Assembly: GCA_044225085.1 (NCBI GenBank)
Contig: JBGAJE010000002.1
Span: 1 to 35,080, forward strand
Direction of reading: 5' to 3'
From: Rickettsiales bacterium
GTDB lineage: Bacteria; Pseudomonadota; Alphaproteobacteria; Rickettsiales; UBA3002
Length of the DNA stretch: 35,080 bases
Below are positions 2,845-31,912 of the stretch, piece by piece; positions within the stretch are counted from its first letter, which is position 1, and each line of letters begins with the position of its first letter. A program made the translations under genes and the position numbers. The notes beneath the pieces were generated by a model. That model did not search any database. It was not told the DNA's origin and saw only the letters and a list, made by a program, of their open reading frames with translations.

Positions 2845-3207
2845 GTGGCGTGGTTTGCTGGGCTTCCTCTTTATAAAAAACTCTCCCTCACGCTCGTTGC
2901 TATAGCCTGTGGTTTTGCGTTTTATCGATGTCTGCACGATGTGCGTCCTGAAGCTTTTGGATTGCTACTAGAGCTTGGCCCTCATCTATTGATTGCTTAC
3001 TGTGTGGTACAGTGCAACAGCCGTGCTGGAAGTGTTATAGCATTTGCACAACTCTTTTTCGCCAGCATAACTGGAATAGTGTTATCCAAAAACAACCCCG
3101 GCGACGTGACGGCCCTTTTATATTGGATGCTGATTATAACAGAATATGCCCTAACACTTATTATTTGGCTGGTGCATTGGTTGATTAGTCGATATCAGGC
3201 CCCATAG
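2845..3207 (+). CDS. hypothetical small membrane protein (3-4 predicted TM segments)
   Basis: 120-aa ORF, AT-richer than its neighbours, with hydrophobic stretches (LTLVAIACGFAFY, LLIAYCVV, VIAFAQLFFASITGIVL, YWMLIITEYALTLIIWLV). GTG start and no recognisable family. Confidence 0.35.
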   Translation: MAWFAGLPLYKKLSLTLVAIACGFAFYRCLHDVRPEAFGLLLELGPHLLIAYCVVQCNSRAGSVIAFAQLFFASITGIVLSKNNPGDVTALLYWMLIITEYALTLIIWLVHWLISRYQAP

Positions 3208-3214
3208 AGCATTT

Positions 3215-3976
3215 TTAAGAAAACGCCCGTTCCCGCTCCGCCTTGCTTGGCACATTGATTAGCACCGCGCGGTGCTTGCCTTGGAACACAAACAATGCCC
3301 CTGCCGCAGCTCCAGAAGCACCAGTTTTAATCGCCGCCGCGAGATTGTCCGCATTGCTCGCGCCTCCGCAGGCGATGACGGGGACGGTGGTGTTCTTCGC
3401 CACGCGTTCAACGAGTTCGAGATCGTAGCCTTGCAGCGTGCCATCGCGGTGGATGGCTTGGACCATGATCTCCCCTGCCCCTTTGGCGGTGACTTGGGCC
3501 ACGTATTCATCCAGCCCTGTTGCGATTTTTTCGGTGCCGGCTTTGATCATTACATCATAACCGCCGAGCAGTTTCTTCTTCGCGTCGATGCCGATGACCA
3601 CGCTTTGGCGACCGAAGCGGGCAGAGGCTTCTTCAATCAACCCCGGCACGGTGACCGCCGCCGTGGTGAGCACTACCTTCTCGCAGCCGAGGCGAAATAG
3701 CTTTTCCATCTGCGCCGTGGTGGTGACGCCGCCGCCATATGCCAGCGGCATGAAGCATTCGCTCGCGAGTTGTTCGATCATGTCGTAATTCGGTTCGCGT
3801 TTGTCGCGTGTGGCTTCGATATCGAGCACCACGAGCTCATCGACACCCTTATCGTTGAAAATGCGCACGGCATTGATGGCATCCCCCACATAGCGGTGAT
3901 CGGCAAATTTCTCGCCCTTCACAAGACCAGTTTTGCGAAGCAGAAGGCAGGGAATGATGCGGGGACGACGGGCCAT
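3215..3976 (-). CDS. HisF-like (beta/alpha)8 cyclase paralogue of the glycan-biosynthesis type (WbuZ/HisF2-like)
   Basis: N-terminus RIIPCLLLRKTGLVKGEKF..YVGDAINAVRIFNDKGVDELVVLDI and MPLAYGGGV, GAGEIMV, ACGGA motifs. Sits next to glycosyltransferase genes, not his genes. Confidence 0.85.
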   Translation of the reverse strand: MARRPRIIPCLLLRKTGLVKGEKFADHRYVGDAINAVRIFNDKGVDELVVLDIEATRDKREPNYDMIEQLASECFMPLAYGGGVTTTAQMEKLFRLGCEKVVLTTAAVTVPGLIEEASARFGRQSVVIGIDAKKKLLGGYDVMIKAGTEKIATGLDEYVAQVTAKGAGEIMVQAIHRDGTLQGYDLELVERVAKNTTVPVIACGGASNADNLAAAIKTGASGAAAGALFVFQGKHRAVLINVPSKAERERAFS

Positions 3977-7326: not shown

Positions 7327-8418
7327 ATGCCATTGCAGTTAGCGAATCCTAGCCGTGTCGTCGCCGAGCATATCCGGCGCGGGGAAAATGTTGGGGTGAT
7401 GGATGACCACCGTAACCCTGACAACGCTGCACTTGTTATGGATCCAGCAGCATTAAAGCTATATGCCGAGGCTGGGCTCAAAGATATTATGCTCGAAATG
7501 GATTCGCATTCCTTCAAACGCTATGAGCAACTTCAGGATCAAGTACGTCACGGCACACTTAATAGGGATCAAGTCCGTAATATTATTAAGCGTGAAGGCT
7601 TATATTTTGCGTATACAGATCAAAACGGGCGCGCGGGGCAAGATATCGATCAACGTGCCGATCTTATCTATCACACGGCAAAGCTGAATATTAAGCTGCA
7701 TTCCTATGATGATCTAGAGGCCTGTGCAAAACGCGCTTACGATTCGCTTTCGGATGAAGATCGCGCGCTTTGGCCCAGCCTGAATGCTATGGTCTATGAC
7801 ATGGCCCAAGTTTCGGCGGGCGCACTTCATGTTTCCGCTGAAAAGCAAGAGGCACTTACACGTTTCCAGGAACTTATTCTTAACGAGCGCGTTGAGCTTA
7901 ATCCGCTTATCGCGACGAAGACGGACGACCATATGGGACAAATGACGGCTCAAAATCTTCAGGGCCGTTCTGTTTTGTTTCTTTATGGTGGAGGCCATAT
8001 GATAGCAGGGAACGATTTGGATGATCGTATCACAGCTTACACAGGCCAGCCGACCGTCAAATTCATGACAAATGATCCGCAATTGCGGGATATTCTACAA
8101 CCTTTTGTGGACATACGTCATGGCGCGGTGGATGTACCAAATTATGTCTATGACCCTCATACAGGTGAAGTCCGAGAAGTCCGCAATGGAGTTCGTGCAG
8201 CGGGACGCCAGGAAATGCAAACGTTCGCGCCACCTGTGCCGGGGGCGCCGGAGCGCACCGGACCGGGTGAATGGTGCAATTTAGACTTTGGCAATTTGAT
8301 GCGGTGGGCCTGTTCCTCGCAAGTGGCGCAGGGTGTGCCTAACCCAACCCCCTCTGTGCAAACGCTGCCAGCTGCTCCTGTGGCTTCCGATCAAGACCGG
8401 GGTGGCAGCAGGGGATAG
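7327..8418 (+). CDS. hypothetical protein (orphan; weak ChaN/Tiki-like motif order)
   Basis: 363-aa ORF of AT-richer composition with no TM segment or signal peptide. Motifs GVMDDHRNPD, LEMD and LYGGGHM occur in that order, followed by a Pro-rich C-terminal tail. Confidence 0.6.
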   Translation: MPLQLANPSRVVAEHIRRGENVGVMDDHRNPDNAALVMDPAALKLYAEAGLKDIMLEMDSHSFKRYEQLQDQVRHGTLNRDQVRNIIKREGLYFAYTDQNGRAGQDIDQRADLIYHTAKLNIKLHSYDDLEACAKRAYDSLSDEDRALWPSLNAMVYDMAQVSAGALHVSAEKQEALTRFQELILNERVELNPLIATKTDDHMGQMTAQNLQGRSVLFLYGGGHMIAGNDLDDRITAYTGQPTVKFMTNDPQLRDILQPFVDIRHGAVDVPNYVYDPHTGEVREVRNGVRAAGRQEMQTFAPPVPGAPERTGPGEWCNLDFGNLMRWACSSQVAQGVPNPTPSVQTLPAAPVASDQDRGGSRG

Positions 8419-9614: not shown

Positions 9615-9998
9615 ATGGTCACCGGCGTTACTAATTCGGCGATTCGTTACATCGATCAACAAGCGCAGCGTATCGAGCAAAGCAACGCGAAGATCGCGAG
9701 TGGGAAAGTCTACACTCCCAATCCCAACAATATCACCACCTATACCCGTGCAGCGACAACGGATACGGCGGATTTGACCGGGATCACTAACCCGGATGAT
9801 CCGAATAATTTGAGTCCGATCAATGTTTCTTATAACCAGATCGGGCCGACCAGCACCACGACAGAAGAAGGTGGTGACGTGGATGTGGCAGCTGAAGTGG
9901 CAGAGCGTAGCAATGCTAGCACGCTGTTTGCCTTCGGGATTGAGGGTCAGAAAAAATCGAACCAGCTGAAAAAGCATATCGTCGATATTCTGACTTAG
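9615..9998 (+). CDS. hypothetical small protein (orphan)
   Basis: 127-aa ORF with a strong SD (AGGAG 7 nt before the ATG) and a Thr/Asn/Pro-rich centre. No confident family assignment. Confidence 0.5.
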   Translation: MVTGVTNSAIRYIDQQAQRIEQSNAKIASGKVYTPNPNNITTYTRAATTDTADLTGITNPDDPNNLSPINVSYNQIGPTSTTTEEGGDVDVAAEVAERSNASTLFAFGIEGQKKSNQLKKHIVDILT

Positions 9999-10646: not shown

Positions 10647-10909
10647 GGAATAACTCCGTTGAGTATACGAATGTTGGGGTTTCCCCCAACCACAGCGCGC
10701 CGACGCGACTTAGGGCTGATAGCACCCTTTTATGTTTGTTCTGTGAGGCTTTTTTGGTTTGCCGCCTCATCTTGATTACGAATAACACACAGGTTTTCTG
10801 AACGCAAGGCTAAGAATATTAATGCAGACGACAAAATCCGAAATAAGCTTTTTACTGTAGGAATTACGTCACAGGATTTTTGAACGACTGTATAGGGCGA
10901 TTTCCCTAT

Positions 10910-10984
10910 TTGTCATTCCCGCGAAAGCGGGAATCTTAGAGTGCTTCTGCGGGTGCAAGATTCCCGCTTTCGCGGGAATGACAA
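10910..10984. repeat. palindromic element, family A (copy A1, intergenic pcm/nlpD)
   Basis: TTGTCATTCCCGCGAAAGCGGGAATCTT...AAGATTCCCGCTTTCGCGGGAATGACAA. Each arm is itself a hairpin (ATTCCCGC-N4-GCGGGAAT), and the two arms are inverted copies of each other. Confidence 0.85.
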
Positions 10985-11004: not shown

Positions 11005-11742
11005 CTAACCCGCTACCAGCGGCACGAACCGCACCGGCGCGAGCGCTTCTTTGCGGACTTCATCTTCCGCCACGCGCGTCAGCTTCAGCAATTGCTGATC
11101 CGCCACATGCGGGCCCACCGGCACAACCATCACCCCACCAATCGTGAGTTGCGCGAGGAGCGTGTGCGGAATCGTATCCGCCGCAGCCGTCACAATGATG
11201 CGTTCATAAGGCGCGGCCAGCGGCCAGCCCTTGCTGCCATCGCCCAAATGCGCGTCGATATTGCGCATTTTTAGCGTTTCAAAGCGGGACTTGGCGAGCT
11301 CAAACAGCGGCCGGTGCCGCTCGATCGTATGCACCCGCCGCGCCAGCTTCGCCAGCACCGCCGCCTGGTAGCCCGAGCCGGTGCCAATCTCCAACACACA
11401 ATGCCGCGGCTGCACATCCAGCGCCTGCGTCATCATTGCCACCACGGAGGGCATGCTGATCGTCTGCTCCATTGCAATCGGCAGCGCATTATCGTCATAG
11501 GCCCGGTCATGAAACTGCTCCTCCACAAACGCCTCGCGCGGCACCTGCTCCATCGCCCCCAGCACGCGCGTATCGGTGACACCCGCCTTGCGCAACGACA
11601 TCAACAGCCGAATTTTTTGGGAAGCAAGCCAGTCATCCTGCGTATTGGCCAGCGCCGGGTGAACCCCCGCAATCGGCTGCGCCACAGGCTTCGCAGCCCC
11701 CCTCTTATGCGCCGACGCCATCATGCCATGCCTCCCCTGCAA
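11005..11742 (-). CDS. pcm: protein-L-isoaspartate O-methyltransferase
   Basis: VPREAFV, ISMPSVVAMM and VLEIGTGSGYQAAVLA (SAM motif) are present. The start is uncertain (M1, M7 or M8), and the N-terminal extension is about 40 aa. Confidence 0.9.
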   Translation of the reverse strand: MQGRHGMMASAHKRGAAKPVAQPIAGVHPALANTQDDWLASQKIRLLMSLRKAGVTDTRVLGAMEQVPREAFVEEQFHDRAYDDNALPIAMEQTISMPSVVAMMTQALDVQPRHCVLEIGTGSGYQAAVLAKLARRVHTIERHRPLFELAKSRFETLKMRNIDAHLGDGSKGWPLAAPYERIIVTAAADTIPHTLLAQLTIGGVMVVPVGPHVADQQLLKLTRVAEDEVRKEALAPVRFVPLVAG

Positions 11743-14826: not shown

Positions 14827-15606
14827 TTATTCAGCCATCTCAGCGGGGATAATGAATGCGTCCGCACTGGCGCGGCGGCGCTCGATTAATCGGCCAACCA
14901 CAATAGAAACCTCATAAAGCGCATAAAGCGGAATGAAAAGCAGGACTTGGCTCAAGATATCCGGCGGGGTGATAAATGCCGCGATGGTGAGCAAAATCAC
15001 CACAGCGTAACGGCGGCCCTTTGCAAGCGTTTGCGCCTTTAAAAAGCCGACGCGAATGAGCAGCGTGAGCAAAATCGGCAATTGAAACGCGAGGCCGAAC
15101 GCGAGGATGATATGCATCACAAGGCCGAGATACTCACTCACCTTCGCTTCAATCGTCAGCGGCAACCCACCTTGTTCTGCGGGAATTTCAAACGAGATAA
15201 AAAACGCCCAAGCTTTCGGCAATATCAGGTAATAGGCCATCGCCGCGCCGATAAAAAACAGAGCCGGCGCGCAGACGAGATACAGCGCCAGCACCCAGCG
15301 TTCGCTTGAACACCCCGGTGCCACGAACAAATACACCTCCGTCGCGATATACGGAAACGCCACAAAAAAGCCGCCATAGATAGCGAGCTTGATATAGGTC
15401 ACAAATGTTTCGGTGAGGTTGGTCGCGATCAGCCGATGTTCATTATCGCCAAACGCTTGCGCCAGCGGGTGCAGCAGAAACTGATAAATATCTGCCGCAA
15501 AAAAATAGCATAGGCCGGTGGCGACAAGCCACACAGCGACGCTGCGCATCACCCGGCCGCGTAGCTCGATGAGGTGGGAAATCAGCGGGGTTTCTTGGTC
15601 AGTCAT
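14827..15606 (-). CDS. tatC: twin-arginine translocase subunit TatC
   Basis: Start taken at [18 protein letters not shown], overlapping the tatB stop by 8 nt. Six TM segments are typical of TatC. Confidence 0.95.
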
Positions 15607-15904
15607 GGGGGAGATTCCCATTCTCCGGCTTCACCGCACTAAGCGTTTCCAGCTCCCGCACGTCATAGGCCTTTTGCGGGTTGCCATCCATATCGATAAT
15701 GGTGGTCATGTTTTGGCGCAGGTCGTCCATCCCCGCCTCTTCCATCACCTGATGCATTTGCGATTTGAGGCCCGCATACACCCCACGAATCTCACGCAAA
15801 AAGCCCATCACGTGTCGCACCACCACGGGCAAATCCTTCGGCTTGATGAGCACGATTCCTGCCACCGCGATCAGCGCTATTTCTGAAAGTCCGATATCGA
15901 GCAT
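15599..15904 (-). CDS. tatB: twin-arginine translocase subunit TatB
   Basis: Start taken at MLDIGLSEIALIAVAGIVLIKPKDLPVV (ATG 15904). This is a TatA/B-type N-terminal TM segment followed by an amphipathic helix. Confidence 0.8.
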   Translation of the reverse strand: MLDIGLSEIALIAVAGIVLIKPKDLPVVVRHVMGFLREIRGVYAGLKSQMHQVMEEAGMDDLRQNMTTIIDMDGNPQKAYDVRELETLSAVKPENGNLPHD

Positions 15905-15911
15905 GCATCCC

Positions 15912-16007
15912 TCGTCATTCCCCGAATTTACAAAGTAAATTCTAGGGGAATCCATCACTGCCGCGTCCCATGGATCACCCGAATCGCTGCGCGATTCGGG
16001 TGATGAC
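15912..16007. repeat. palindromic element related to family A (copy A4, tatA-tatB spacer)
   Basis: Termini CGTCATTCCCCGAAT / ATTCGGGTGATGACG. Internal hairpins ATTCCCC-N21-GGGGAAT (15917-15951) and ATCACCCGAATCGC-TGC-GCGATTCGGGTGAT (15974-16004, 14-bp perfect stem). Confidence 0.6.
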
Positions 16008-16013
16008 GGCGTT

Positions 16014-16190
16014 CTACTTCTTCTCTTCCGGCGGCAGCACTTGCTGTTTGCCGTTTTTTTCGTCGCCGTTGAGCTCATCGCGCAGGTTTTTGATGCCTTT
16101 GCCGATATCGCCCATCACGCGCGGCAGCTTGCCCGCGCCAAAAAGAATGACCACCACGAGCAGCACCAAAACCAAATGCATAATCTGCAT
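16014..16190 (-). CDS. tatA: twin-arginine translocase subunit TatA
   Basis: 58-aa ORF below the track threshold: MQIMHLVLVLLVVVILFGAGKLPRVMGDIGKGIKNLRDEL... GAGGA lies upstream. Confidence 0.85.
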   Translation of the reverse strand: MQIMHLVLVLLVVVILFGAGKLPRVMGDIGKGIKNLRDELNGDEKNGKQQVLPPEEKK

Positions 16191-28772: not shown

Positions 28773-31700
28773 TTAATGCGCGTCGCCCCAGTGCTGGCCG
28801 ATGCCTGCTTCGACCGTCAGGGGGACGGAAAGTGCGGCTACATTTTCCATCGTGCGCTTCACTTGCGGGGCGAGCGCGGCGGCTTGGTCTGCTGGAGCTT
28901 CGATGATGAGTTCGTCATGCACTTGAAGGAGAAGACGCGCCCCTTTCACCTCTCCCACCGGGAGAGGTCGAAATCCGCCTTCGGATTTCGGGTGAGGGCC
29001 CGACAGTGAAGAAGACTGCAGCGCGGCGCCCTCACCCAAAATTTGCGGGGGCAAATTTTGACCTCTCCCGGTGGGAGAGGTAAGAAGTCCATGCACCTCA
29101 ATCATCGCGCGTTTGATGATATCTGCCGCTGTGCCTTGCAGCGGCGCATTGATTGCTGCGCGCTCCGAGAACGACCGGAAGTTCGGGTTCTTTGCATTAA
29201 TATCGCGCACGTGAATGCGGCGACCATACAGCGTTTCGACATATTCATGCTCGCGCGCGAACTGGATCGTGCGATCCATATATTCCCGAATCCCCGGATA
29301 GCGCTCGAAATATTTGCCGATATAGGTCGATGCCTCGGAGCGCGAAATACCGAGCTGCGCGCTTAAGCCATGCGCGCTGATGCCGTAAATAATCCCGAAA
29401 TTAATCGCCTTTGCGCGGCGGCGAATTTCGGGGGTCATTTGGTCGAGCGGCACGCCGAACATCTCGCTCGCCGTCACTGCGTGAATATCGGCACCACTGC
29501 GGAACGCTTCCTTCAGCGCGCCGATATCGGCCATATGCGCGAGCAGTCGTAGCTCGATCTGCGAATAATCCGCTGAGATAAGCTTGAACCCCGGTGGAGC
29601 GATGAACGCGGTGCGAATACGACGGCCCTCTTCGGTGCGGATCGGAATATTTTGTAAATTCGGATCGCTCGATGCCAGCCGCCCCGTGCTCGCCACCGCC
29701 ATTGAGAAACTCGTATGCACCCGCCCGTCGCGCGGCGATGTCGCCTTGGGCAACGAATCCGTATAGGTGCTTTTCAGTTTTGAATATTGCCGCCACTCAA
29801 GCACTTTGCGGGCGATCTCGTGCCCCTCTTCCGCCAGCGCCTCGAGCGTTGCGGCATCGGTGGTATACGCGCCACTTTTGCTCGATTTTTTACCACCGCC
29901 AAGCTGGAGCTTGTCATACAGCACCTCGCCCAATTGCTTCGGCGAACCCACTGAGAACGGCATGCCAGCGAGTTTGATGACTTCCTCTTCCAGCGCATTT
30001 ATTTTCAGTGCGAACTGGCCGGAGAGTTCGGTCAGCAACTTCACATCAATCGCCACGCCCGCCACTTCCATCGCCGCGATCACGGGCACAAGCGGCCGCT
30101 CGATCGTCTCATACACCGTCACTACATGGTTCGCGATGAGTTGGGGTTTTAGCAATTCATAAAGCCGCAGCGTAAAATCCGCATCTTCCGCCGCGTAGTC
30201 CGTCGCCGCATCCAGCGGCACTTGCGCGAAGTTGATTTTCGCTTTGCCTGTACCAGTGACGGATTCATAGGAAATCATCTTATGGTTAAAGTGTCGGTCG
30301 ACGAGAAAATCTAACCCATGCGCGTGCAACCCACCTGCCGTGCAGTAGGACATCAACATCGTATCCGCCACCGGCGATATGCGCGCACCATATTTCTCCA
30401 GCACCACGAGGTCGTATTTAATGTTATGGCCAACCTTCATTACGGATGGATGGGTGAGCATCGGCTGTAACAATTCCAGCACGCGTGGCAGTGAAAGTTG
30501 CCCAGGCAGCAGTTTCTTCTGCCCACTTGTTGGCGCATCAAATAAACTCGATTGCGGCACCGCGTCGCCACCCATTTCACTCACATGACCGACGGGGATG
30601 TAGCATGCCTTGCCCGGTGCCGTGCTCAGCGAAATACCAACGAGTTCCGCATCCACCGCCGCAAGCGATGTTGTTTCGGTATCTACCGCCAGCGTGCCCA
30701 CGCGCATCGCCTCGGTGATCCAACGTTGGAGTGCCGCTTCATCGGCAACCATTTCGTAATGCGCTTCAACTTTGTCATTCCCGCGAAGGCGGGAATCTTC
30801 TGATATTTGCGCCATATCCGAAGAGAGATTCCCGCCTTCGCGGGAATGACGTGTGGAGGGGTTCGTGAATCTTGCTGCCGCCGGATTTGCTGATGACTGA
30901 TGACTAGTGGCTGATTCACCTGCTAGTCCCATCTTCTTCGCGAGTGATGAAAAGTTCTGGGCATCCAAAAACGCCGCCAGCGCGGCGCTATCAAACGGCC
31001 GCGTCTCCAGCGCCGCCAGCGGCTCCGGCAGCGGCACGTCGTGCTTCAGCTCCACCAACTGCCGCGACATCCGCGCCGCCTCCGCATGCGTCGTCAGCAC
31101 TTCGCGCCGCTTCGGTTGTTTGATTTGATCGAGATGCGCCAGCACCCCCTCGAGCGTCCCGAATTGCGTAATCAACTCCGCCGCCGTCTTCGGCCCAATG
31201 CTCGGCACCCCCGGCACATTATCCACCGAATCCCCAATCAGCGCCTGCACTTCGACGACCTTATCCGGCATCACGCCGAATTTTTCCACCACCTGCGCGC
31301 TACCGATGAATTTCTGCTTCATCGGGTCCATCATCGTCACTTCACCATCAACGACGAGCTGCATCAAATCCTTGTCGGAGGACACAATCACCACCTCGCG
31401 CCCCTCGGCCCGCGCGGCCTCCGCATAGCTTGCGATCAAATCATCCGCCTCGTAATTCTCAAGCTCAATCGCCGGGATATTCAGCGCCCGCGTTACCTCG
31501 CGCACCAGTGGAAATTGCGGAATCAGCTCCTCCGGCGTTTCCGAGCGGTTCATTTTATATTCGGGATACAACTCCGAGCGGAAGCTCTTGCGTCCCGCAT
31601 CGAAAATCACCGCCAGCATATCGTGCTTATAGGTCTCGCGCAGCTTCAGCAGCATGGTGGTGAAGCCATAGACAGCCCCGACTTGTGTCCCATCTCGCCG

Positions 31701-31808
31701 CGTCAGCGGAGGCAGCGCGTGAAATGCCCGAAAAATATAGCCCGAGCCATCGACCAACACGAGACGTTGGGGTTTTGTTTCAGCGGTTGCAGTTTGTGCG
31801 GTTTCCAT
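28773..31808 (-). CDS. polA: DNA polymerase I (1011 aa, carrying two repeat-derived in-frame insertions)
   Basis: 5' nuclease domain (LVDGSGYIFRAFHA), 3'-5' exonuclease domain (LAVDTETTSL), and polymerase motifs A (SADYSQIELR), B (RRRAKAINFGIIYG) and C (QVHDELI). Confidence 0.95.
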   Translation of the reverse strand: METAQTATAETKPQRLVLVDGSGYIFRAFHALPPLTRRDGTQVGAVYGFTTMLLKLRETYKHDMLAVIFDAGRKSFRSELYPEYKMNRSETPEELIPQFPLVREVTRALNIPAIELENYEADDLIASYAEAARAEGREVVIVSSDKDLMQLVVDGEVTMMDPMKQKFIGSAQVVEKFGVMPDKVVEVQALIGDSVDNVPGVPSIGPKTAAELITQFGTLEGVLAHLDQIKQPKRREVLTTHAEAARMSRQLVELKHDVPLPEPLAALETRPFDSAALAAFLDAQNFSSLAKKMGLAGESATSHQSSANPAAARFTNPSTRHSREGGNLSSDMAQISEDSRLRGNDKVEAHYEMVADEAALQRWITEAMRVGTLAVDTETTSLAAVDAELVGISLSTAPGKACYIPVGHVSEMGGDAVPQSSLFDAPTSGQKKLLPGQLSLPRVLELLQPMLTHPSVMKVGHNIKYDLVVLEKYGARISPVADTMLMSYCTAGGLHAHGLDFLVDRHFNHKMISYESVTGTGKAKINFAQVPLDAATDYAAEDADFTLRLYELLKPQLIANHVVTVYETIERPLVPVIAAMEVAGVAIDVKLLTELSGQFALKINALEEEVIKLAGMPFSVGSPKQLGEVLYDKLQLGGGKKSSKSGAYTTDAATLEALAEEGHEIARKVLEWRQYSKLKSTYTDSLPKATSPRDGRVHTSFSMAVASTGRLASSDPNLQNIPIRTEEGRRIRTAFIAPPGFKLISADYSQIELRLLAHMADIGALKEAFRSGADIHAVTASEMFGVPLDQMTPEIRRRAKAINFGIIYGISAHGLSAQLGISRSEASTYIGKYFERYPGIREYMDRTIQFAREHEYVETLYGRRIHVRDINAKNPNFRSFSERAAINAPLQGTAADIIKRAMIEVHGLLTSPTGRGQNLPPQILGEGAALQSSSLSGPHPKSEGGFRPLPVGEVKGARLLLQVHDELIIEAPADQAAALAPQVKRTMENVAALSVPLTVEAGIGQHWGDAH
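28945..29083. repeat. palindromic element, family B (copy B2, inside the polA polymerase domain)
   Basis: TTCACCTCTCCCACCGGGAGAGGTCGAAATCCGCCTTCGGATTTCGGGTGAGGGCC...GCCCTCACCCAAAATTTGCGGGGGCAAATTTTGACCTCTCCCGGTGGGAGAGGTAA. Same module order as B1. Confidence 0.85.
30772..30850. repeat. palindromic element, family A (copy A2, inside the polA inter-domain linker)
   Basis: TTGTCATTCCCGCGAAGGCGGGAATCTT...GAGATTCCCGCCTTCGCGGGAATGAC. It is translated in the polA frame as RHSREGGNLSSDMAQISEDSRLRGND. Confidence 0.85.
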
Positions 31809-31817
31809 AACTCTCCA

Positions 31818-31912
31818 TTGTCATTCCTGCGAAGGCAGGAATCCAGCGCGACGTGAGACGCGTCGCAAGTATCATTTAAGAAGCTGGATGCCAGCCTTCG
31901 CTGGCATGACAA
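31818..31912. repeat. palindromic element, family A (copy A3, polA/esterase divergent spacer)
   Basis: TTGTCATTCCTGCGAAGGCAGGAATCCAG...CTGGATGCCAGCCTTCGCTGGCATGACAA with a central hairpin GCGACG-N7-CGTCGC. Confidence 0.8.

Follow-up and report, generated by a model that had tools for sequence, protein, structure and literature searches.

A CGTC-1 REP dimer lies in frame in the inter-domain tether of DNA polymerase I from a Rickettsiales bacterium

The polA gene of an uncultured Rickettsiales bacterium raises the question of how a long, perfect palindrome came to stand within the coding region of DNA polymerase I, and whether the peptide that it encodes matters to the enzyme. The DNA analysed, hereafter the window, was a stretch of 35,080 nt (assembly GCA_044225085.1, contig JBGAJE010000002.1, positions 1 to 35,080, forward strand), in which polA occupied nt 28773–31808 on the minus strand as a single open frame of 1011 aa. 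An earlier note, made from the sequence alone, had described a 79-bp palindrome in this gene as a copy of a repeat family, family A, translated in the linker between two domains of the enzyme. As set out below, the element is very probably a tolerated and translated selfish-repeat insertion, namely a dimer of CGTC-1 REP units in a flexible tether of PolA, the peptide itself being unselected.

The palindrome was present as described and spanned nt 30774–30850, with two arms of 25 nt each (30774–30798 and 30826–30850) that were 100% complementary and 27 nt apart. Its predicted RNA fold had a free energy of -56.7 kcal/mol (z = -8.7), a stability reached by 0 of 200 shuffled sequences, and the DNA fold was about -36 kcal/mol (z about -11); the window contained the arm motif 5 times where 0.00 occurrences were expected. 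The 27-nt spacer (30799–30825) contained a small hairpin of its own, GATAT..ATATC. Taken as a REP dimer (copy A2, CGTC...GAC), the element covered nt 30774–30851 on the minus strand, that is, 78 nt or 26 codons, R320 to D345, and read RHSREGGNLSSDMAQISEDSRLRGND; the polA-frame translation quoted previously, ...NPSTRHSREGGNLSSDMAQISEDSRLRGNDKVEAHYEMV..., was identical. In PolA, Pfam matches delimited the 5′-3′ exonuclease (5_3_exonuc) at residues 15–274, the 3′-5′ exonuclease (DNA_pol_A_exo1) at 351–557 and the polymerase at 591–1009, and the dimer codons thus fell between the 5′-nuclease and 3′-5′ exonuclease domains, as had been proposed. All columns invariant across 97 orthologues, those of the exonuclease and polymerase motifs included, were retained.

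REPs of the CGTC type (Di Nocera, De Gregorio & Rocco 2013, BMC Genomics 14:522, PMC3733652) possess a CGTC tag, often TGTC or CCTC, an 8-bp stem with A and T in the first positions, a 4-nt loop and a short unpaired tail with the consensus CCA; they occur mostly as inverted dimers with variable spacers of 20–100 bp and have been found inside DNA synthesis and repair genes, DNA polymerase I among them. The same authors equated CGTC-1 with dRS3 of Neisseria and RPE-6 of Rickettsia conorii. In the polA element, the first unit, promoter-proximal on the coding strand, was CGTCATTCCCGCGAAGGCGGGAATCTCT (nt 30824–30851, minus strand), read as RHSREGGN, with an 8-bp stem, ATTCCCGC/GCGGGAAT, closed by the loop GAAG and a predicted DNA hairpin of -8.9 kcal/mol. 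The second unit, TGTCATTCCCGCGAAGGCGGGAATCTTC (nt 30773–30800, plus strand), ran forward on the strand opposite the coding one and had the coding-strand reading DSRLRGND. The tags were CGTC at nt 30851–30848 on the minus strand and TGTC at nt 30773–30776 on the plus strand. The arms were assigned to CGTC-1 because they combined the C/TGTC tag, an 8-bp stem starting with AT (ATTCCCGC-GAAG-GCGGGAAT), a 4-nt loop and the following C; inverted dimers were moreover repeated in the window. Judged by its sequence, family A corresponds to the published CGTC-1 REP and the Neisseria dRS3-NTS and, by the equation just given, to the Rickettsia RPE-6, with no local novelty; the earlier note was right in recognizing a repeat family.

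The NTS is dRS3 extended to 28 nt, CGTCATTCCCGCGMAVGCGGGAATCYRG (Chenal et al. 2025, Nat Commun 16:2388, PMC11893778). The first and second units differed from this consensus at 2 and 3 positions, respectively, all of them at the initial tag position or in the final two positions of the tail, and the bases found critical in that study, G-T-C before the palindrome and C after it, were both present. In that study, NTS were accepted with 1 mismatch and an Ssn-related motif (SRM) was described by a degenerate pattern; the window units, at 2–3 mismatches, lie outside the strict threshold and are in line with the looser SRM idea.

Beyond the unit structure, the window shared with CGTC-1 the variable spacers, the intergenic copies near gene 3′-ends, the intragenic dimers coding for 20–30 residues, the decoration of DNA polymerase I, and the intragenic readings VIPAKAGI, SFPRKRES, HSRExGN, DSRxRGND and IPAFAGMT (PMC3733652). 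Differences were seen in the host, here an uncultured alphaproteobacterium from a bioreactor, and in the tail, CT[TC] in the clade of the window versus the usual CCA/CAG, which appears from the sequences to be a clade-specific variant. The C after each stem was present throughout; the bases following it were TC/TT in the intergenic copy A1 and in A2, and CA in A3, a copy upstream of polA. The arms of the polA dimer and A1 were 96–97% identical, which bears out the near-identity claimed for them, and the spacer of the polA dimer had no sequence relation to those of A1, A3 or the corresponding copy at locus L121.

REPINs and GTAG REPs, reportedly mobilised by RAYT transposases, resemble the polA element in building a long hairpin from a pair of inverted REP hairpins and in belonging to a high-copy, mostly extragenic family. 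However, the window units started with C/TGTC and had no GTAG at either end, on which ground the RAYT/REPIN reading was rejected; their sequence was, moreover, conserved across phyla and not species-specific, and no RAYT is associated with CGTC REPs (PMC3733652). A classic miniature inverted-repeat transposable element was likewise rejected, for inverted arms were present but no target-site duplication was found at A1, A2, A3 or 123 copies elsewhere. The Rickettsia palindromic elements of Ogata et al. (2000, 2002), as reviewed in PMC10969869, share with the window a selfish palindrome kept in frame and translated where the fold tolerates it; classic RPE-1, in the same account, is about 150 bp long with a conserved peptide in one frame, in contrast to the short RPE-6-type hairpin of the window with its unconserved spacer and many frames. 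The likeness to RPE-6 itself follows from the equation made in PMC3733652 and from identical encoded peptides in its supplementary table. A search of the element against Rfam gave no credible family; a match to FtrB, at 30.2 bits, fell below its gathering score of 66 and was treated as due to chance.

If the encoded peptide were selected, intragenic copies might be expected to share one reading frame and one orientation, a possibility raised in the earlier note. The left arm was open in all three frames (VIPAKAGI, SFPRRRES and RHSREGGN) and the right arm in two (DSRLRGND and IPAFAGMT), the third being closed by TGA. Peptides listed for CGTC-1 in the supplementary table of PMC3733652 were VIPAKAGI, SFPRKRES, CHSRESGNP, DSRFRGND and IPAFAGMT, and the published intragenic units use all open left- and right-arm frames; truB of E. 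litoralis, with RHPREGGDP..DPRLRGG, has the same frame pair as polA of the window. In our own sample, exact-arm dimers were found inside a Pfam domain match in a Mur ligase (SFPR..DSRL) and in CobN (VIPA..DSRL), and four more, in other frame pairs, in the N-terminal regions of PBP1C, a ClpB-like ATPase, an RluB-like synthase and a deoxyhypusine synthase. The polA linkers of relatives, too, made use of each of the three left-arm frames and of the two right-arm frames that are open. A shared frame and orientation was thus contradicted by the published dimers, the exact-arm survey and the relatives alike, and orientation has almost no meaning here since the arms are reverse complements of each other. 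As every stop-free combination of frames is used, the sequences compared give no sign of selection on the encoded peptide. The element provides a clean example in which intragenic REPs would be filtered for being open in a frame that falls in a disordered part of the protein, rather than for the peptide they encode.

The same openness of the arms has a consequence for annotation. An open reading frame of 78 aa (..VIPAKAGIS..IPAFAGMT..) overlapped the element at nt 30683–30919 on the minus strand in another frame, as reported before, and is most likely a spurious by-product of the stop-free arms; arms of this kind create spurious frames and inflate the length of PolA. Translated CGTC dimers are already on record, PolA included: Rhodopseudomonas palustris PolA (RPE_4821) carries an in-frame dimer at residues 338–367 of 1012 (PMC3733652), which is of the CGTC-3 type, that of the window being CGTC-1. 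The window adds one more housekeeping enzyme with such an insert.

The site of the element in PolA appears to be a tolerant one. In an AlphaFold2 model (97 orthologues), the mean pLDDT was 88.7 and the domains exceeded 90; values below 50 were confined to residues 1–9, 298–341, 413–416 and 917–944, of which 298–341 is the linker carrying the insert. From F286 to Y351 the linker measured 64 aa in the window, compared with 31–86 aa (median 43) in the 120 closest orthologues, and would be 38 aa without the 26 inserted residues. No conserved sequence was found in this linker among the orthologues. That of the sister sequence, P0002, held a different long hairpin and a family-B-type arm, and that of P0011 three GC-rich hairpins; CGTC-type dimers, intact or half decayed, were present in the linkers of P0004, P0077, P0072, P0049, P0092 and P0119. 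Palindrome-free orthologues with the same linker sequence, which would have spoken against an inserted element, were not found; the linkers of orthologues devoid of the palindrome differed from that of the window and were shorter.

The arms were widely distributed. In a scan of one genome per species, requiring both arms to be exact, at least 120 matches were obtained, and those listed were all from genomes other than that of the window. The matches listed included isolates of Dyella, Sphingopyxis, Devosia, Massilia, Polaromonas, Pseudomonas and Povalibacter, together with metagenome-assembled genomes of Terriglobia, Dehalococcoidia, Anaerolineae, Falkowbacteria, Doudnabacteria, Bacteroidales, Elusimicrobia, Brocadiia and others, and thus ranged over Alpha-, Beta- and Gammaproteobacteria, Terriglobia, Chloroflexota, Patescibacteria, Bacteroidales and others. 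Their spacers were 10–40 nt long, all different, and opened mostly with CA; the tail bases after the post-stem C were C/A in 82% and 89% of these cross-phylum copies. In 240 outer flanks, position -1 was C in 56% and T in 31%, and the palindrome tended to run on for 1–4 bp.

Two side observations were made on these copies. In the flanks of 120 exact-arm dimers (L126–L245), the roughly 14 nt preceding each tag were depleted of G, to 10–16%, and CC[ACT]CC occurred in 18 of the 240 flanks as opposed to GG[AGT]GG in none; the conserved unit may thus reach beyond the 28-nt NTS. A shared C-rich 5′ flank, CCCCTCCAC, was considered as part of the unit and rejected, the 240 flanks showing a general depletion of G upstream of the tag and no fixed motif. 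Separately, contigs from soil, aquaculture and bioreactor metagenomes (runs X2, X3 and X4) piled up within nt 30742–30877 on the arms only, with a word depth up to about 200 and unrelated flanks, which indicates that the unit is common in environmental DNA. A joint skipping nt 30797–30832, found in soil run X2 and tried as an excision variant, came from the copy of another organism.

SsnA is a small nuclease of the GIY-YIG type that binds and cuts the NTS in single-stranded form only and on one strand only; that Ssn proteins mobilise the hairpins was put forward as a hypothesis, not a result (PMC11893778). Genomes bearing NTS or SRM are expected to hold a cognate ssnA (cd10448), in many cases with the motif on its flanks. 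Among the loci fetched via the arm motif, small arm-flanked GIY-YIG open reading frames were found at L047 (nt 7826–8137) and L067 (nt 2970–3338), matching PF01541 with E values of 2e-16 and 5e-15, respectively. Both formed complete hairpin-GIY-YIG-hairpin cassettes on IMG/VR contigs (L047, nt 7786–8164; L067, nt 2952–3377) with arms of the family-A type, thereby reproducing the hairpin-ssnA-hairpin arrangement of Chenal et al. with the arm type seen in polA. By tblastn, homologues of the nuclease were detected in 7 loci, i.e., five beyond these two.

The following course of events would account for the locus. A pair of CGTC-1 REP units in inverted arrangement, whose tags point outwards and whose tails face each other, would have been inserted or kept in the part of polA coding for the tether that links the 5′-nuclease to the Klenow-like part of the enzyme. 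With the 78 nt and both arms free of stops in the frame used, the element would be translated as 26 disordered, hydrophilic residues, and PolA would stay intact in that the linker accepts almost any length and sequence; the insertion would be nearly neutral. The sole filter would be the lack of a stop or frameshift and a position outside the folded domains. Each DNA strand carries one forward unit able to fold into an 8-bp hairpin, and an SsnA-type nuclease together with the hairpin, as in the cassettes, would be the best available candidate for spreading or maintaining the family, possibly in this genome too. Along with the linkers of the relatives, the locus forms a small data set on the repeated colonisation of one site, which could help to show how hairpins of the CGTC/Ssn type spread.

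Several points weigh against this account. Neither empty-site nor excision alleles were seen among the assembler contigs, so that both the insertion and its precise borders are inferred, and no RNA run containing the polA stretch was found. By tblastn, neither the window nor the polA loci of relatives yielded an ssn homologue, and CGTC REPs have no dedicated transposase that could be found (PMC3733652). The distance from the right-arm end to the Tyr351 codon was 15, 15, 12, 13, 16, 12 and 33 nt in seven alphaproteobacterial lineages; in 6 of the 7, therefore, the dimer ended 12–16 nt before the conserved Tyr codon, a clustering that random insertion combined with tolerance does not predict.

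This clustering, reached in spite of three stem variants (CCCGC, CCGGC and CCAGC) and the use of all open frames, may mean that hairpin dimers of the Ssn (CGTC) type land, or are exchanged, preferentially at the 3′ edge of the linker between these PolA domains. The codon position shared by the window and P0004 points the same way. These two are not sisters: in a tree of 80 orthologues, the window was joined first by P0002 (support 97) and next by P0011 (95), and P0004 fell in a different clade together with P0010 (92). Five changes are needed on this tree for the five orthologues in which a CGTC dimer is clearest. Nevertheless, the dimers of the window and P0004 occupied the same codon in the same frame, 15 nt from the Tyr codon, between similar flanks (CCCCTCCAC[A/C]C followed by GTCAT on one side, and ATGAC followed by nnnGTTGA on the other), and had unrelated spacers. 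A preferred site is offered here as a tentative possibility. If it exists, either these hairpins insert in a targeted manner or gene conversion keeps replacing a resident copy with the repeat variant current in each genome, and the linker would constitute a natural, datable system for following the movement of a repeat family that has no known transposase.

The same data can be read as the trace of a single ancient dimer at the 3′ edge of the linker, which would predate the split of the lineages, have been refreshed by gene conversion in some of them and have decayed to a "variable linker" in others, so that the copy in the window would not be recent. The site, frame and flanks common to the non-sisters (PST before R320, xVE after D345, 15 nt to Tyr), the position of the right ends in 6 of 7 lineages, the three stem variants and the half-decayed copies in P0049 and P0119 agree with it, as does the linker of P0072 (L252), whose right arm, GTCATTCCCGCGAACGCTGGAAT, was a hybrid with halves of the CCCGC and CCAGC variants (CCCGC..GCTGG) and has the look of an arm that is partly converted or still changing. 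However, for the pair of the window and P0004 alone, a common origin would need at least 9 losses as against 2 gains, the spacers were unrelated, and both the phases (12, 13, 15 and 16 nt) and the left-arm frames differed. A single old dimer is considered unlikely.

Less credible is that the copy is kept in polA for a role as nucleic acid, either as an Ssn cleavage site, present on both strands, which would curb recombination or transformation of the polA region, or as an mRNA hairpin of 25 bp. Such a hairpin might make ribosomes pause between domains, or its cleavage by RNase III might allow separate expression of the 5′-nuclease and the Klenow-like part. The great stability of the hairpin would suit such a role, as would the almost identical arms of the window and L121 in the presence of different spacers and adjoining codons, the effect of NTS/SsnA on transformation in Neisseria (PMC11893778), the frequent reports of CGTC/GTAG REPs in DNA repair genes (PMC3733652) and the recurrence of dimers directly upstream and downstream of polA in relatives. 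Yet the sister P0002 and most orthologues had no CGTC dimer at this place, and the arm sequence is conserved across phyla wherever it is found, which renders its conservation here uninformative on local function. SsnA, furthermore, does not act on RNA or double-stranded DNA, and NTS repeats, unlike the present copy, are rarely intragenic in Neisseria, at 2% (PMC11893778). No terminator-like or promoter-like site was called at the element. A function of this kind is accordingly judged improbable.

As to the reliability of the sequence, a Logan contig from a bioreactor run (1865 nt, depth 6.3) reproduced nt 30300–30977 with 0 differences and 0 gaps, and this identity makes a misassembly of the palindrome unlikely; the run is possibly the window's own sample and then counts as a second assembler, not a second sample. 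That the palindrome is an assembly artefact or the mark of a dead polA, as might be feared of a metagenome contig at so low a depth, is scarcely believable in view of the identical stretch from the second assembler, the 1011 open codons with every invariant column kept, and the recovery of the equivalent insert-bearing allele of P0004 in contigs of different samples.

The window held three family-A dimers within its 35 kb, and their spacers measured 19, 27 and about 45 nt. Copy A1 (nt 10909–10984), which is intergenic and has perfect arms of 28 nt around the 19-nt spacer, was situated 21 nt past the stop of the open reading frame at nt 11005–11742 (minus strand). Copy A3, at nt 31817–31912 directly upstream of the polA start, was a diverged dimer with the left-stem variant CCTGC/GCAGG. 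CGTC dimers also stood directly upstream of polA in two distant relatives (L123, nt 9860–9937, and L249, nt 874–974), of which L123 had the left-stem variant of A3, and arms were found just downstream of the polA stop in L123, L247 and L248.

The gene contained a second palindrome, of family B, at nt 28945–29083, in frame in a palm loop where the model gave a pLDDT below 50 (residues 917–944); polA of the window thus does host elements from two repeat families, as the earlier note had stated. The arms of this palindrome, at nt 28946–28999 (plus) and 29028–29083 (minus), gave full-model matches to Rfam RF01762 (whalefall-1 RNA) of 35.4 and 33.7 bits, respectively, against a gathering score of 37, and on this basis the "whalefall-1" motif may be a repeat-element hairpin of this kind. 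In orthologues P0025 and P0029, CGTC-type peptides, EIPACAGMT and EIPASAGMT, were located at two other positions of PolA (residues ~929 and ~505, respectively), one of which is the palm loop that holds family B in the window. Finally, nt 15912–16007 of the window contained a CGTC-tagged heterodimer of other unit types, overlapping the predicted open reading frame at nt 15599–16078 (minus strand); its left unit was ATTCCCC...GGGGAAT with a long structured loop, and its right unit had a 14-bp stem, ATCACCCGAATCGC.

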